Shown here piece after piece: positions 5,317-14,148 of a stretch of 64,000 bases of DNA. This DNA is from Escherichia phage vB_EcoM-Pr121LW: the sequence record MH752840.1. One strand, written 5' to 3'. A program made the translations under genes and the position numbers. Position 1 is the stretch's first letter, and every line of letters begins with the position of its first letter. A model generated the notes under the pieces. The model was not told where the DNA came from. It saw only the letters and a list, made by a program, of their open reading frames with translations, and ran no database searches.

Positions 5317-6248
5317 TGCATATAGTCCTCGTTGTGGAAATAGTAGTCCAGTATCTCACGACGCTCCTGCTCTAATAAGCAATTCCACACATCTTCTGTA
5401 TAGTTGCTACGAATAAATTTTACCATACCGTAAAACTCTTCGTCAACACGTTTAAAGATATCATCATCCCAAATCTTCCAAGCTTTACCCCTCATTACTG
5501 CCTTCCGTGCCAGATAGTATGGAGACTTGATCTTCAGCTGCAGATCATAAGGGTAGTAAGGCTTACGAATCATATACCCTTCACCTCTTGTTTCTGCAGC
5601 TAATTCTTTTGCATAGCTGAACGGAATTTCACGCACAGTGTGAGGACGTTTTGCACCAAGGTATTTGGCAATCCCATCTAAAGCTGCTTCTGGTAGCATT
5701 ATTCCAGAATCATTATATCTGCAACCTATCAAATATGCGCCATGATCTTCCTGAACAATATGCGGATCTGAAGGGTGGCAAATTTCAAACATGAATGTCA
5801 TGTTTTCATTGCCCATAACCTTCTTGATAAGATCTAAATTACCACATTGCTCCTTGATGGTTTCTTTTGCGAGGTTACAATATGGGGAATCAAGAGACCC
5901 GGTTGTTGAGAACAATAGTTCACCTTTATGAGATGATACCACACCGAGGAATCCGTTCTTTTTCTCTACCGCAGTAACAAGTTTACTGTCCGGTAGGTTG
6001 GTGGAGTTTTCTCCTAAGTTGAATACTTTTGTGAAAGGCCATGCCACAACATTCCCCTCATTGCCAACAACAATACCTCGGCACTCCAGTAAACGCGGAG
6101 ACAAATGCCACAGATCGTTGTAGAATACTTTTCTGGCATATTTATAGATCTTTAATCCAAGATCTGGATAATACCGACTGGTTACAAGACCTTTGTCTAC
6201 TAGGTCATCTGCATTAAAATACTTCATCATACGTTCCTCATTTGTCAT
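5313..6248 (-). CDS. RNA ligase 1 (T4 RnlA-like)
   Basis: 311 aa; LSPRLLECRGIVV and FTKVFNLGEN match T4 Rnl1 N-terminal motifs as I recall them; KxNG motif I (EKKNGFLG). Confidence 0.8.
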   Translation of the reverse strand: MTNEERMMKYFNADDLVDKGLVTSRYYPDLGLKIYKYARKVFYNDLWHLSPRLLECRGIVVGNEGNVVAWPFTKVFNLGENSTNLPDSKLVTAVEKKNGFLGVVSSHKGELLFSTTGSLDSPYCNLAKETIKEQCGNLDLIKKVMGNENMTFMFEICHPSDPHIVQEDHGAYLIGCRYNDSGIMLPEAALDGIAKYLGAKRPHTVREIPFSYAKELAAETRGEGYMIRKPYYPYDLQLKIKSPYYLARKAVMRGKAWKIWDDDIFKRVDEEFYGMVKFIRSNYTEDVWNCLLEQERREILDYYFHNEDYMQ

Positions 6249-7321: not shown

Positions 7322-7368
7322 TCCCTGCTATTTTAAAGAAAATTGCCACACAAGGAGAATCAGGAGAT

Positions 7369-7719
7369 ATGAAAGATGGGGATAAGCTGCTATATCTTAA
7401 AGTCCCCCTTGAAATACTATCTATGTCAAAAGTTTTGAATGACACAACTGGGGAGGTTGTTGTTCTTGACTTGTATGACAAGATTGTATACTGCTACCTG
7501 CACAACTGGTATAAGCTTGGAGGAAATTCCCGCTTCACACCAAGCACAAGGAAAATTGCAGCAGATGTTGGGATAAAGAAAACAAAAGCAGCAGCGTGCG
7601 TTAAAACTTTAGAATGTGCAGGAGTGGTTGAAACATCCACACAAGGGAGAGGTAAAAGATGCACATTTTCCAAAGTTTTGCCACCAGAAGAAGTTATTCG
7701 AATGTCAACAACTGGTTAG
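7369..7719 (+). CDS. HTH DNA-binding protein (candidate regulator or initiator)
   Basis: 116 aa with helix-turn-helix-like segment STRKIAADVGIKKTKAAACVKTLE; sits immediately upstream of the iteron array. Confidence 0.4.
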   Translation: MKDGDKLLYLKVPLEILSMSKVLNDTTGEVVVLDLYDKIVYCYLHNWYKLGGNSRFTPSTRKIAADVGIKKTKAAACVKTLECAGVVETSTQGRGKRCTFSKVLPPEEVIRMSTTG

Positions 7720-9504: not shown

Positions 9505-9743
9505 TGGCTTTATCTCCGGATGCTTTGAAACAGGGTTCGGAGAAGACTGAGTTCCCCTCAGAGGGCTTGATAGTGCACCACACTTAAAATGGTAGGGGCA
9601 GCCAGCACATGACGATGTGACCCCAGCCAACCTGTAACAAGGTCGAGCCGAAGCGCGGGTAATAGGCCTCTGGTAACCCACTTGTTGGGTCTTGCTGGTC
9701 CAGGACGCTGGACAAGTCGCAGGGAATACCACCCTGCGGCGAA
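9505..9743 (+). ncRNA. candidate structured RNA
   Basis: GC-rich intergenic segment with multiple perfect hairpins (CCCTC-A-GAGGG; CCAG-GACG-CTGG; CAGGG-AATACCA-CCCTG); only low-complexity antisense ORFs. Confidence 0.25.
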
Positions 9744-10149: not shown

Positions 10150-10178
10150 TTGACAAACTTTGCTTAACAGTGTAATAT
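10150..10178 (+). promoter_or_regulatory. sigma70-like promoter for the tRNA cluster (TTGACA-N17-TAATAT)
   Basis: Consensus hexamers about 60 nt upstream of the first tRNA. Confidence 0.5.
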
Positions 10179-10236: not shown

Positions 10237-10308
10237 GCCCTGTTAGCTTAGTGGATAAAGCAGCGGCCTTCTAAGCCGTTGACACTGGTTCGAGTCCAGT
10301 ACGGGGTG
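10237..10308 (+). tRNA. tRNA-Arg (anticodon TCT)
   Basis: Hand-folded cloverleaf: acceptor GCCCTGT/ACGGGGT with two G-U pairs, anticodon loop CTTCTAA, T-loop GGTTCGAGTCC, CCA encoded. Confidence 0.6.
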
Positions 10309-10442
10309 CCAAGTTCTTTTTAATGTAGCTTACTTTAGCAGAGTAAATCTTCGGCAAGTGGCGGTAACCACTTTTACCGATACCTCATAGTTAGTGGTGA
10401 GAACACTAGCTATTTTAAAAAGAATTTAAATATTAGTATTTA

Positions 10443-10527
10443 GGTGAGTTAATTCCGTAGGGGTAGCGGGGCAGACTGTAAATCTGTTATCATTGCGATT
10501 CGGGTGGTTCGACTCCATCACTCACCA
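10443..10527 (+). tRNA. tRNA-Tyr (anticodon GTA), long variable arm
   Basis: Anticodon arm GCAGACTGTAAATCTGT and variable arm resemble E. coli tRNA-Tyr; acceptor GGTGAGT/ACTCACC; CCA encoded. Confidence 0.65.
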
Positions 10528-10644
10528 CCAAATTTATATTTTTAAATGCATAAATTATACAGATAATGGCATTGATATTTATCGTCGTTTATACTAGTCA
10601 CTAACTGCTCGAAAATCAGTGTCATTATCAGTATTGTTTATAAA

Positions 10645-10732
10645 AGAGGGTAGGGAGCAATGGTGCTCAAGCGGTCTTGAAAACCGTCCCGTTGAGGATG
10701 ACTCGATGATGGTTCGATTCCATTACCCTCTG
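10645..10732 (+). tRNA. tRNA-Ser (anticodon TGA), long variable arm
   Basis: Acceptor AGAGGGT/ACCCTCT, anticodon loop CTTGAAA, T-loop GGTTCGATTCC, CCA encoded. Confidence 0.6.
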
Positions 10733-10833
10733 CCATATTGTTGACCTTGTAATTAAGCGAAAGCCGGAAGCAGAACCGGATTATCAAATGTTACAGTCGT
10801 CATCGCCGACTAGCAACATTGTCAACATACTGA

Positions 10834-10930
10834 GCTAGGTAAGCCCTTTGGCAAGGGCGAGGATTTTTAATCCTGAAAATAGACGAGGTAGTCGTTGAAT
10901 ACATAGGTGGTTCGATTCCACCACCTAGCA
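10834..10930 (+). tRNA. atypical tRNA-like element (anticodon possibly TTT; about 29-nt variable region)
   Basis: Acceptor GCTAGGT/ACCTAGC, D-arm GCCC..GGGC and T-arm GGTGGTTCGATTCCACC fold, but anticodon stem is 4 bp plus a mismatch and total length about 97 nt. Confidence 0.3.
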
Positions 10931-10937
10931 CCTTTTT

Positions 10938-11010
10938 GCTGATGTAGCACAATTGGTAGTGCAATTGATTTGTAATCAATAGGTTGCAGGTTCAAGTCCT
11001 GCCATCAGCA
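10938..11010 (+). tRNA. tRNA-Thr (anticodon TGT)
   Basis: Acceptor GCTGATG/CATCAGC, D-stem GCAC/GTGC, anticodon arm ATTGA-TTTGTAA-TCAAT, T-arm GCAGG-TTCAAGT-CCTGC, CCA encoded. Confidence 0.7.
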
Positions 11011-11014
11011 CCAT

Positions 11015-11086
11015 GGCCCTGTAGCTGGAAGGTTCAAGCAAGCGACTCATAATCGCCAGACGGTGGTTCAATTCCACCCAGGGCCA
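11015..11086 (+). tRNA. tRNA-Met or Ile2 (anticodon CAT)
   Basis: Acceptor GGCCCTG/CAGGGCC, anticodon loop CTCATAA, T-loop GGTTCAATTCC, CCA encoded. Confidence 0.65.
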
Positions 11087-11100
11087 CCAAATAGTAAATA

Positions 11101-11174
11101 CTCCGCGTAGCTCAGCTTGGTAGAGCGCCTGATTTGGGATCAGGAGGTCGAGTGTTCGAATCACTCCGTGGAGA
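11101..11174 (+). tRNA. tRNA-Pro (anticodon TGG)
   Basis: Acceptor CTCCGCG/CGTGGAG, anticodon arm CCTGA-TTTGGGA-TCAGG, T-loop GTTCGAATC, CCA encoded. Confidence 0.7.
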
Positions 11175-11223
11175 CCACTTTCAGTTATACTTTAAACATA
11201 TACACACAAAAGGAACCTTTAAA

Positions 11224-11997: not shown

Positions 11998-12281
11998 GAG
12001 TTGCTGCACTGTTTATTGTGTGCTTTTTATTATGCGGGTGTGCAACCAGCGTTGAGAGAGAATACAAGATTGACCCTCCTGATGTAGGAAGGTTGATTGT
12101 TAAACCCCCGGAAGGTGCCATGAAACCACCTGCTAAAGCTATGCCTTTGAAGAAAGGTGCGCCAGATGCAGTGAATTCTGGCATTATGAGGGATAATAAT
12201 CTGTCTTGTAGCAATGATAGAGCTAAATTGATCATTTTGCAAGACTATATTAGAACACTGTTTCCAAAGGAGAGAGGTTAA
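11994..12281 (+). CDS. o-spanin (Rz1-like outer-membrane lipoprotein)
   Basis: Signal peptide with lipobox-like FLLCGC, proline-rich mature region; overlaps i-spanin stop; AGGAGG RBS. Confidence 0.55.
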   Translation: MRVAALFIVCFLLCGCATSVEREYKIDPPDVGRLIVKPPEGAMKPPAKAMPLKKGAPDAVNSGIMRDNNLSCSNDRAKLIILQDYIRTLFPKERG

Positions 12282-12706
12282 TGTCTAAGATTTACGGACC
12301 GTGTTCTGAAAAGCAGAAGATGATCCTCGAAAACGATGCAGATATTTTGGTAATCGGCGGTGCCGCAGGGTCTGGCAAGTCGTTCCTCTTGCAGTTGATG
12401 CCGCTTAAAATTATCGATGACCCCCACAGCTCTGTGGTTATGTTCCGAAGAACAACCCCACAGTTGGAAGGTGAGGGTGGACTATGGCCTAAAGCAGTAG
12501 CTATTTATAGCGATCTGCCTGAAAACATTAAGCCAAAGTTCAGAGAGAAGGATCATAAGTTCATTTTTCCACGGTTTGATCCGAACACTGGCAAGTGGGA
12601 TAGAAGCAAAAAGGGAGCTGTTGTAAAATACTGCCACATGGAGTATGTACAAGATAAGCTTAACCATCAAGGGCTTGAGTACACCATGGTTTGCTTCGAT
12701 GAGGGT
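12281..12706 (+). CDS. terL: terminase large subunit, exon 1 (ATPase domain)
   Basis: Walker A GGAAGSGKS, Walker B-like MVCFDE; ORF stops at TAA 12707-12709, taken as the first intron codon. Confidence 0.7.
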
Positions 12707-13023
12707 TAATTTGTAGCTCTCGTAAAACCTCCCTAATTGCGGGGAAATCTTTACTATTAATACCACCAACCTGTCATGGTAACATGATAGAGGCTTCGAA
12801 GAGAGATCGAAGGTATGGTAACAGTGTGTTAATTTAGATAATCCGCAGCGAAGCATCCGAGAGGATGAACGTTCAACGACTAGTCGAAAGACGTAGAATC
12901 AAGCGATTCGAAACGGGAGGGTAAGCGGTTGTTGTCGCTTATAAGATATAGTCTGGTCTGCATGGAGACATGCAGCTGCCTGAAAAATGGCGGGGCAAGA
13001 CTAGCGACCTTGCCCGAACATAG
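12707..13023 (+). ncRNA. group I self-splicing intron (no internal ORF); boundaries approximate
   Basis: Conserved core motifs GTTCAACGACTAGTCG (12871-12886) and AAGATATAGTC (12943-12953); splits terL; 5' exon ends in U, intron ends in G. Confidence 0.6.
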
Positions 13024-14148
13024 ACGACACAATTCGAATGGGAGCAGATAGACTATCTGATGTCTCGTCTGCGATCTCAGTCAAAGTATCCATCAAGGAT
13101 GGTTATCAGCTGTAACCCTGATTCAGAACACATGCTTGCCAAACTGGTTAGATGGTGGTTGGACGATGAAGGGTATCCAGATCCGGAGAAATGTGGTAAG
13201 AAAAGATATTTTATCCGACGCGACGGTGAATTTATTTGGGGGGACTCTAAGGAGGAGTTGATAGAGAAATACACCACGGTTAACGGACTGGGTGTAGAGA
13301 TCAAGCCAAGACCGTTGTCATTCTCGTTCATAGGCGCAACAATATTCGATAATCCTGTCTGTTTGAGAGACAACCCAGAATACCTTGCTTTCCTCGAAGG
13401 TCTACCAGAGCTGGAAAAAGCTCAGCTTCTCCATGGTAACTGGTTTGCAAAGCCTGAGGGTGCAAACTATTTTCAAAGATCTTTCCTTCGTGATGCCGAT
13501 AGAGTACCCCTTGGATCAGTATCTTGCAGGGCATGGGATAAGGCAGGAACCGAGAGAACTTCTGGCAATAAATTTCCTGACTTTACTGCCAGTATTAAGG
13601 TAAGTAAAGATAGCGACGGCTTTTATTACCTGTCAGGGGATTATTGTCCTGAAAACGTGGATGACGGGAGGTATTCCACAGGTCTGGAAGGCAAGTTCTG
13701 TAAAAAGGCTGGTGAACGAGATGTGATCATCAGGAAACAGGCGCAGTTTGATGGTGATGATTGCATAATCGTATTCTCTGTGGACCCTGGTCAGGCAGGT
13801 AAGAGTGAGTTCTTAACCTCATCCAGATCCTTGCTCGCAGAAGGGTTCAGGGTTGAAGAAGACCCAATGCCTTCCAACAAGTCTAAACTGACAAGGTTCT
13901 CACCTTTTGCCAATCTTGCCCAACAAGGGATGGTGAGGATTGTAAAATCCAGTTTCCATCCTGATACTCTGGAAGCATTTCTGACCGAACTTGAAAAATT
14001 CAACGGGGAAAGATCAACATTTAACAGAAAAGACGACTGGGCTGACTGTGTAGCTTCTGCAATTAATTTCCTGGAGAAAGAGGAGGTAGCACTTCCTTGT
14101 GTGATTCCATCAATCTCATCACCTTCTATGTTCAAGCGTTTTATCTAG
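13024..14148 (+). CDS. terL: terminase large subunit, exon 2 (nuclease domain)
   Basis: Frame opens at 13024 right after an in-frame TAG; encodes TTQFEWEQIDYLMSRLRS... continuing the TerL fold with acidic nuclease motifs (DPGQAGKSEF, DDWADC). Confidence 0.65.
   Translation, partial: TTQFEWEQIDYLMSRLRSQSKYPSRMVISCNPDSEHMLAKLVRWWLDDEGYPDPEKCGKKRYFIRRDGEFIWGDSKEELIEKYTTVNGLGVEIKPRPLSFSFIGATIFDNPVCLRDNPEYLAFLEGLPELEKAQLLHGNWFAKPEGANYFQRSFLRDADRVPLGSVSCRAWDKAGTERTSGNKFPDFTASIKVSKDSDGFYYLSGDYCPENVDDGRYSTGLEGKFCKKAGERDVIIRKQAQFDGDDCIIVFSVDPGQAGKSEFLTSSRSLLAEGFRVEEDPMPSNKSKLTRFSPFANLAQQGMVRIVKSSFHPDTLEAFLTELEKFNGERSTFNRKDDWADCVASAINFLEKEEVALPCVIPSISSPSMFKRFI

Follow-up and report, generated by a model that had tools for sequence, protein, structure and literature searches.

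What fills the gaps between the transfer RNA (tRNA) genes of Escherichia phage vB_EcoM-Pr121LW? Positions 10237-11174 of the stretch analyzed here (64,000 nucleotides (nt) of sequence record MH752840.1, called the window throughout) had been read from the letters alone as a cluster of six tRNAs, an additional tRNA-like element of unusual shape, and a spacer that contains strong hairpins. That reading stood for the cluster, its odd member and the structure of its spacer, but comparison with other phages led us to revise both the possible UUU anticodon of the odd member and the label "spacer". The region is a single promoter-driven tRNA operon of an rV5-like coliphage, and we consider it highly likely that two elements lying between its tRNA genes, named A and B below, are both conserved, functional, non-decoding RNAs.

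10312-10426, + strand: element A, a four-helix RNA (fold z = -3.8; 10-sequence alignment; model R2; no Rfam match)
10834-10932, + strand: element B, a tRNA-shaped RNA (ARAGORN "tRNA-??? (atcc)"; Rfam tRNA model, 37.1 bits; fold)

Element A, which is bridged to tRNA-Tyr by a 16-nt tail (10427-10442), is made a four-way junction by its closing stem P1, an 11-base-pair (bp) helix between UUCUUUUUAA and UUAAAAAGAA. The other three helices are P2, an invariant hairpin (UUACUU-UAGCA-GAGUAA), P3, whose variable loop falls into discrete allelic types, and P4, with 9 bp and a 7-nt loop. None of 200 shuffled sequences folded as well as the minimum free energy (MFE) structure. Both of the hairpins named in the original prediction exist; what they belong to, however, is not mere spacer but a discrete conserved RNA element with a closing stem that had gone unmentioned. 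In an alignment of 10 distinct, mutually related sequences, 99.1% of cells were paired and double changes were seen in seven pairs of P1, P3, and P4, compared with none in controls with slid pairing partners. Covariance model R2 gave A 124.9 bits on the + strand, as opposed to 41.3 bits on the - strand. This asymmetry, together with the fixed G.U pairs, assigns the structure to the tRNA-sense RNA. Searches of Rfam 15 returned no match to 10312-10442 at E <= 10 and none to a plasmid-type copy at E <= 1.

The distribution of A is patchy. In most rV5-like phages the gap between tRNA-Arg and tRNA-Tyr is 5 nt, whereas the window and a minority of its relatives carry around 131 nt more. We found A in about 176 records; among those listed, none has an RNA or tRNA feature over it and three show only a "hypothetical protein". 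Identity to the window copy is 96-98% in Phapecoctavirus (ESCO13, ukendt, and others) and 73-90% in phAPEC8, Justusliebigvirus (phi92, VEcB, W22), the Vequintavirinae phage LTH01, and T5-like Tequintavirus (HildyBeyeler, Spc35, EH7, phiLLS). Where the flanks were examined, A lies immediately 5' of tRNA-Tyr in four phage groups, or 5' of a Lys-Tyr pair in phi92-type phages. On its 5' side it directly follows the CCA of the preceding tRNA, and 1-16 nt separate its 3' end from tRNA-Tyr, except in LTH01, where about 175 nt intervene. In T5-like phages that carry it, A forms the leader from the strong promoter P14a to tRNA-Tyr. This leader is replaceable: HildyBeyeler (locus L007, 701-816) and Spc35 have A there, T5 has 95 nt of unrelated sequence that forms hairpins (locus L029, 11429-11524), and SP15 has only some 50 nt (locus L108, about 9569-9620).

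The window and the otherwise unrelated ESCO13 are approximately 99-100% identical over a block that starts at the CCA of the upstream tRNA and runs through tRNA-Tyr. The tRNA-Tyr of ESCO13 (about 831-918, locus L107) is identical to that of the window and unannotated. The flanks of this block are unrelated, and its junctions coincide with the tRNA ends. A shared block within unrelated flanks indicates that A and tRNA-Tyr have been exchanged as a cassette, and the window lineage acquired the two together as one such cassette.

Relatives of A also occur outside phages. A metagenome scan and model R2 identified longer forms, of 167 and 223 nt, with the same closing stem. A core-only class, scoring about 60 bits (GUAGC...CUUACUUUARYAGAGUAAA-YUUUCGG-hairpin-CCGAUACC), is located 3' of a TTGACA promoter-like site with no tRNAs nearby and is 100% identical to E. 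coli plasmid sequence, for example in pRK1 (E. coli W) and pSE11-1. The A core was present on 48 E. coli plasmids and on no chromosome. It occupies 6032-6139 of pRK1 (locus L105) and 7331-7438 of locus L037, where the promoter-like site reads TTGACA-17-TAGCTT, the neighbors are hypothetical and DUF4238 genes, and the core runs antisense to the 3' end of a 114-amino-acid hypothetical membrane-like open reading frame (ORF). Plasmid and phage copies share P3 loop alleles. Among the proteins encoded around the plasmid core we could recognize DUF4238 only, with sub-threshold hints of HEPN/2TM-effector domains, and no defence or toxin-antitoxin system.

These properties bear on whether A is an RNA in its own right, or instead mobile DNA resembling a miniature inverted-repeat transposable element (MITE) or a cis leader that does nothing beyond aiding the processing or expression of tRNA-Tyr. 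The 11-bp terminal inverted repeats of A, its variable presence in close relatives, and its movement between phage families are all compatible with the latter pair of readings, as are its tight linkage 5' of tRNA-Tyr and its P14a-Tyr leader position in T5-like phages. Counting against a mobile DNA element, no target-site duplication was seen at the junctions and A consistently runs in the direction of the tRNAs; the placement of the exchange junctions at tRNA ends points to homologous recombination. The G.U pairs and strand asymmetry likewise favor a helix formed at the RNA level, and the internal hairpins covary too. A purely cis-acting leader, for its part, sits poorly with the plasmid copies of the core, which have no tRNA nearby, and with T5 and SP15, which express functional tRNA-Tyr without A. 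We consider this pair of readings doubtful.

Element B presents a different problem, as its resemblance to a tRNA is considerable. In the window its 5' part comprises a 7-bp acceptor stem, A8, and a D arm that can be drawn with a 6-bp stem and 4-nt loop or with 4 bp and 8 nt. The anticodon-like branch that follows has a G.G mismatch and a 4-bp stem with the loop UUUUUAA, and is succeeded by a 29-nt insert (linker GAAAAUA, hairpin GACGA-GGUAG-UCGUU, linker GAAUACAUA), the T arm GGUGG-UUCGAUU-CCACC, and the end A-CC. The acceptor, D, and T arms, the 4 bp plus mismatch, and the roughly 29 nt before the T arm had all been drawn by hand in the original prediction, and the MFE fold (z = -4.1) reproduces them. 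The four-base anticodon "atcc" reported by ARAGORN is a product of that program's alternative fold and gains no support from the family alignment.

That alignment contains 15 distinct, mutually related sequences, every one of which folds unconstrained into a common five-arm shape. In the consensus cloverleaf 98.6% of helix cells are paired, with double-sided changes in 10 of 23 pairs (47 cells). The covariation score was 0.437, against 0.161 for shuffled alignments (0/500 reach the observed value) and at most 0.106 when partners were slid by 1-3 columns. Conserved features include G1-C72, C2-G71, A8, a D arm in which 6 bp can enclose a 4-nt loop, the 4-bp stem with its preceding G.G mismatch, and the T arm. 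Two A-rich linkers, GAAAAUA and RAAUACAUA, are also conserved; the extra hairpin between them varies by lineage both in sequence and in length (13-27 nt). The 3' end is an encoded U-CCA in most lineages and A-CC in rV5 types.

Comparison with canonical tRNAs divides these features into two sets. In all 15 sequences the acceptor stem is 7 bp long and the T stem 5 bp, the T loop has 7 nt in a UUCGAUU-type sequence, and compensatory changes are present. The anticodon branch and the tertiary-core positions, in contrast, depart from the canonical pattern. In place of a 5-bp anticodon stem there is a G.G mismatch and 4 bp in every member; the loop has 7 or 8 nt and mostly A or C at position 33, rather than 7 nt with U33 and a purine at 37 (the window copy, unlike most members, conforms here, its 7 nt including U33 and A37); A8 and U14 replace U8 and A14; and the variable region is neither short (4-5 nt) nor an abutting class II arm, but spans 27-37 nt with unpaired 7-9-nt linkers on both sides. 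Covariance model R1 gave B members 89-115 bits (108.6 for the window copy) and ordinary tRNAs at most 31, the best being Ser-UGA at 27-31 bits. An Rfam search of B at permissive thresholds produced no significant match of the YrlA, tmRNA, or rtT type. B retains all of the tRNA parts that are read by the processing machinery, namely the acceptor, the UUCGAUU T arm, the GG D loop, and an encoded or repairable CCA.

Full-length homologues of B were found in 221 phage records. They come from several Vequintavirinae genera, some phi92-like phages, and one N4-like phage. The groups represented include Vequintavirus, across which B is almost invariant, the TH18/Av-05 clade, Seunavirus (NINP13076, GAP31, 4MG, EspYZU15), and Mydovirus (KB57, Mydo, Ro1). 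Others belong to Henunavirus (Erwinia phage pEa_SNUABM_56, hereafter pEa56), "Salmonella phage 41", some Justusliebigvirus (W22, PHB05, muut, and others), and the N4-like Ithacavirus UTK0002. In UTK0002 another tRNA-Sec-like match (30 bits, sub-threshold; locus L020, 738-819) lies directly 5' of the B homologue. A 22-mer scan of bacterial genomes, one per species, did not find B, and pattern scans of IMG/VR added only six B loci and three A loci, mostly near-identical to known phages. Public records label B as tRNA-OTHER, tRNA-???(atcc), tRNA-Lys, tRNA-TERM, or pseudo, or leave it unlabeled.

The anticodon-like loop is where the orthologues diverge. It reads UUUUUAA in rV5 types, UUUAUAA in TH18 and Av-05, CAUCAAA (with A33) in W22, pEa56, and UTK0002, and CCAUCCAG, CCCUCAAG, CCCUCCAG, or CCAGCCAG in Seunavirus and Mydovirus. 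Read as anticodons, these would be UUU, UAU, and a UCA-like triplet in the first three sets, with none definable in Seunavirus and Mydovirus. The UUU anticodon first suggested for this element does match the window loop, but as a lineage-specific trait: because the orthologues carry UUUAUAA, CAUCAAA, or 8-nt loops, B is not a conserved Lys decoder. Instead it belongs to a conserved family of tRNA-shaped RNAs and is not a conserved decoder, the Lys-like loop being limited to the rV5 lineage.

It is nonetheless worth asking whether, in the rV5-like phages alone, B could be a true tRNA-Lys(UUU) that accepts an amino acid despite its oversized variable arm, useful for instance when PrrC, RloC, or PARIS-type nucleases cut the host tRNA-Lys. 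In the window copy, UUU occupies positions 34-36 between U33 and A37, with A73 as discriminator; the anticodon and A73 are the identity elements for E. coli lysyl-tRNA synthetase. B also exceeds the gathering score of the Rfam tRNA model (29 bits), and several GenBank records name it tRNA-Lys. Phage tRNA-Lys is, moreover, known to counter PARIS and PrrC (PMC11464382, PMC11555353). Yet the nearest sister clade, TH18/Av-05, has UAU in an otherwise near-identical B, and other genera have CAUCAAA or 8-nt loops. The stem has only 4 bp with G.G, positions 8 and 14 are A and U, and, in contrast to class II tRNAs, the 29-nt region contains long unpaired linkers. Among 49 long ORFs of the window, set against E. 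coli reference frequencies, the AAA codon is not enriched (1.0x), and W22 possesses a canonical tRNA-Lys as well as B, so that there B is no substitute for tRNA-Lys. A lysine tRNA strikes us as an improbable identity for B.

A further reading takes B for a tRNA pseudogene in decay, and A and two further spacers (C and D, below) for filler or recombination scars. It can call on the pseudo or OTHER flags of B in some records, on the polymorphic presence of A, and on the nature of these tRNA clusters as recombination hot spots with homing endonuclease genes, but is very unlikely in view of the 98-99% pairing kept by compensatory substitutions across genera and families, the invariance of the B linkers and the A core over roughly 25% sequence divergence, and the constant orientation of A with tRNA-Tyr or Lys-Tyr as its neighbor where flanks were examined.

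From sequence comparison, then, we regard as established the family membership of both elements, their conserved and strand-specific structure, the exchange of A as a cassette, the lack of a conserved anticodon in B, and element boundaries that fall at tRNA processing sites. The explanation we prefer, and think more probable than not, is that the gaps of the tRNA operon hold conserved, folded, non-decoder RNAs which are released as stable RNAs and act as RNA. In this model, RNase P would cut the 5' ends of B and tRNA-Tyr and normal trimming would act at the 3' ends, thereby freeing A and B as small stable RNAs, by analogy with RNAC and RNAD of T4 and the "tRNA-like stable RNAs" of T5. Both would then act as RNA and not in decoding. 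A may work in trans as an RNA, or may be no more than a cis leader. For B, the most plausible role, given that phage tRNAs counter tRNA-cleaving defences, though on balance unlikely in this specific form, would be that of a tRNA mimic or decoy that occupies a tRNA-binding protein, be it a phage factor or a nuclease or other enzyme of the host that targets tRNAs. A still more doubtful extension would make both elements RNA counter-defence tools, the decoy loop of B being tuned in each lineage to the tRNA under attack by local anticodon nucleases (Lys-like in rV5 phages), and A mimicking an RNA that E. coli plasmids would transcribe from a promoter of their own beside uncharacterized accessory genes and being traded between phage families together with tRNA-Tyr as an anti-defence cassette; as a subsidiary part of this extension, the CAUCAAA-type B RNAs may be weak tRNA-Sec-like suppressors of UGA.

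Several points count against the explanation we prefer. Most rV5-like phages lack A, as do T5 and SP15, and A is hence dispensable. B went undetected in phi92 by model R1 and, as it is near-invariant within Vequintavirus, its UUU loop might still serve a lineage-specific role there. The decoy idea names no target. Finally, since the aligned sequences are related and both alignments are small, the shuffle control makes the covariation look more significant than it is, and sliding the partners is the fairer control.

Two other spacers of the operon, C between tRNA-Tyr and tRNA-Ser and D between tRNA-Ser and B, are also structured.

10531-10644, + strand: spacer C, a long imperfect hairpin (z = -4.45 when folded as 10528-10644; 0/200 shuffles equal)
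10736-10833, + strand: spacer D, a closing stem UGUUGAC/GUCAACA enclosing inner hairpins (z = -2.3)

Spacer C was found only in Vequintavirus (113 records, all at least 90% identical, with no homologue elsewhere), and its confinement to such near-identical records leaves no testable covariation. Spacer D reaches further: by blastn, 10751-10818 is 87% identical to lambda (J02459, 44866-44934), HK630, and the P1-like phage D6. The lambda counterpart is unannotated and lies between orf-64/tR' and gene S, and one compensatory change, U-A to G-C, separates the two in a hairpin. Spacer D may be a further conserved RNA element common to lambdoid late-operon leaders.

The remainder of the operon consists of its promoter and the six decoder tRNAs.

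10150-10178, + strand: sigma-70-type promoter, TTGACA-17 nt-TAATAT (10/12 consensus matches; the near-identical ECML-10 annotates a "Sigma70-type promoter" there)
10237-10311, + strand: tRNA-Arg, anticodon TCT (decodes AGA), encoded CCA (ARAGORN; Rfam tRNA model, 67.8 bits)
10443-10530, + strand: tRNA-Tyr, anticodon GTA, class II, encoded CCA (Rfam tRNA model, 39 bits over 10443-10527; missed by ARAGORN)
10645-10735, + strand: tRNA-Ser, anticodon TGA, class II, G73, encoded CCA (ARAGORN only)
10938-11013, + strand: tRNA-Thr, anticodon TGT (ARAGORN; Rfam, 79.5 bits)
11015-11089, + strand: tRNA with anticodon CAT (ARAGORN, as Met-cat; Rfam, 60 bits)
11101-11177, + strand: tRNA-Pro, anticodon TGG (ARAGORN; Rfam, 66.4 bits)

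All six, and the consensus promoter upstream of them, were recovered by ARAGORN, Rfam, and a promoter scan at the positions where they had been folded or read by eye, and the concern that standard finders would reject the hand folds proved unfounded, with ARAGORN and/or Rfam accepting each one. In Rfam, tRNA-Ser matched the tRNA-Sec model only, at 41 bits, which is under the threshold of that model. Over its 1.15 kilobases the region shares 97-99% identity with rV5-like Escherichia phages (Vequintavirus), with ECML-10 as the top match, and in rV5-like records the cluster is preceded by small hypothetical genes and followed by spanin and terminase genes.

The acceptor stem of the CAT-anticodon tRNA (GGCCCUG) contains C4-G69 and C5-G68, which are also present in T4 tRNA-Ile and are presumably the pairs recognized by TilS, and BASEL records label this tRNA as Ile/ATA. 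It is probably a lysidine-dependent tRNA-Ile2 reading AUA, and not a tRNA-Met. The host codon-usage comparison proposed at the outset gave, in the 49 ORFs considered above, enrichment of AGA (7.8x), ACA (3.6x), ATA (2.8x), and TAC (1.6x) in the phage relative to E. coli, with weaker values for TCA (1.4x) and CCA (1.3x) and none for AAA. The six canonical tRNAs fit codon compensation, most clearly for AGA, ACA, and AUA.

The tRNA-Tyr gene is a variant in which additional nucleotides separate the acceptor and D stems, and it is missing from the annotations of ECML-10, 241Ecol014PP, and ESCO13; having been missed by ARAGORN and by annotators alike, Tyr is under-counted in these genomes. It agrees with T5 tRNA-Tyr at 72/91 aligned positions, and the T5 record describes its own tRNA-Tyr as an effective suppressor after an anticodon change. 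The tRNA-Pro gene agrees with that of T4 at 63/77 positions. In the close relative 241Ecol014PP (locus L004, 2536-2877), an HNH endonuclease ORF is found 3' of the CAT tRNA, in the place of the window's tRNA-Pro, and no tRNA-Pro is annotated at that site. Further downstream, a group I intron (Rfam RF00028, 84 bits) at 12697-12975 of the window interrupts the large terminase gene, whose halves are ORF 12281-12709 (positions 2-104 of the Terminase_6N profile) and ORF 13060-14148 (positions 117-211, plus Terminase_6C).

Phage tRNA clusters have lately been recast as counter-defence loci, with the focus so far on canonical tRNAs. Our results place conserved, folded RNAs of the A and/or B type within the tRNA clusters of rV5-like, phi92/phAPEC8-like, and T5-like phages and of one N4-like phage, where annotation pipelines overlook them or give them conflicting labels (Lys, OTHER, ???, TERM, pseudo). 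One misannotation can be corrected directly, as B should not count as a tRNA-Lys in analyses of codon usage or anti-defence. The movement of A with tRNA-Tyr, together with its plasmid core, points to the exchange of RNA modules among mobile elements. As they occur in culturable phages of the BASEL collection, A and B are candidates through which the role of small stable RNAs in tRNA regions might be approached.

Small stable RNAs within the tRNA clusters of T4 and T5 have been recognized since the 1970s. Like A and B, RNAC (species 1) and RNAD (species 2) of T4 are encoded in a phage tRNA cluster, on the tRNA strand and near tRNA-Arg; they are stable RNAs whose roles are still unknown (PMC3014915, PMC9697503). 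Neither R1 nor R2 matched the T4 locus, and homology with RNAC or RNAD was rejected on these grounds. RNA1, RNA2, and RNA3 of T5 ("tRNA-like stable RNAs") and its RNAI, RNAIII, RNAIV, and RNA2H are similarly small RNAs between tRNA genes and on the tRNA strand, with no function assigned in the T5 record. They too were discarded as homologues, as the T5 tRNA region contains no match to R1 or R2. The T5-like phages HildyBeyeler and Spc35 carry A itself, at the place where T5 has its different leader.

In its architecture, B resembles tRNA-Sec (RF01852) and the allo-tRNAs (Mukai et al. 2017, PMC5389517), sharing with them a long extra arm and a D arm of 6 bp closed by a 4-nt loop. The CAUCAAA loop of UTK0002, pEa56, and W22 resembles the tRNA-Sec consensus CUUCAAA, and for these copies the best Rfam model is tRNA-Sec, at scores (39.1 bits for UTK0002, 37.6 for pEa56) that fall under its gathering score of 47, in an alignment that employs the 6-bp D stem and sets the loop against CUUCAAA; the window copy scores best on the general tRNA model. 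The differences are also clear. The acceptor/T branch of B is 7/5 in all members, compared with 8/5, 8/4, or 9/3 in tRNA-Sec and allo-tRNA types, and B differs further from tRNA-Sec in its 4-bp anticodon stem and in the long unpaired linkers beside its extra hairpin. UCA occurs in some lineages only and always with A33, the window copy having UUU.

A second comparison is with phage tRNAs that counter tRNA-cleaving defences (PMC11555353, PMC11464382, PMC10264068), among which phage tRNA-Lys genes act against PARIS and PrrC (PMC11464382, PMC11555353). The pairs T5 tRNA-Lys/PARIS, T5 and SP15 tRNA-Tyr/retron-Eco7, and T1/T7 tRNA-Lys/PrrC share with A and B the setting of a phage tRNA cluster. The likeness extends to the position of A beside tRNA-Tyr and to the Lys-like loop of rV5-type B. 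Anti-defence phage tRNAs are, however, canonical and translating, whereas B has no conserved anticodon. A link between A and the anti-retron effect of tRNA-Tyr (Azam et al.) was rejected: SP15, the phage used there, and T5 both lack A, which is consequently not required for that effect.

The bacterial Y RNA YrlA offers a precedent for a non-decoding RNA that mimics the tRNA elbow (PMC4201824); the sole Rfam match to it (RF02553) in our elements is partial, with E = 2.2, and runs across the junction of B and tRNA-Thr. A literature search, whose reach excluded older papers on the T5 RNAs, returned no earlier description of either family. Judged by the models and databases used here, A and B match no Rfam family and no stable RNA of T4 or T5, while the general kind of molecule to which they would belong, the small stable RNA of the phage tRNA cluster, is one already known.

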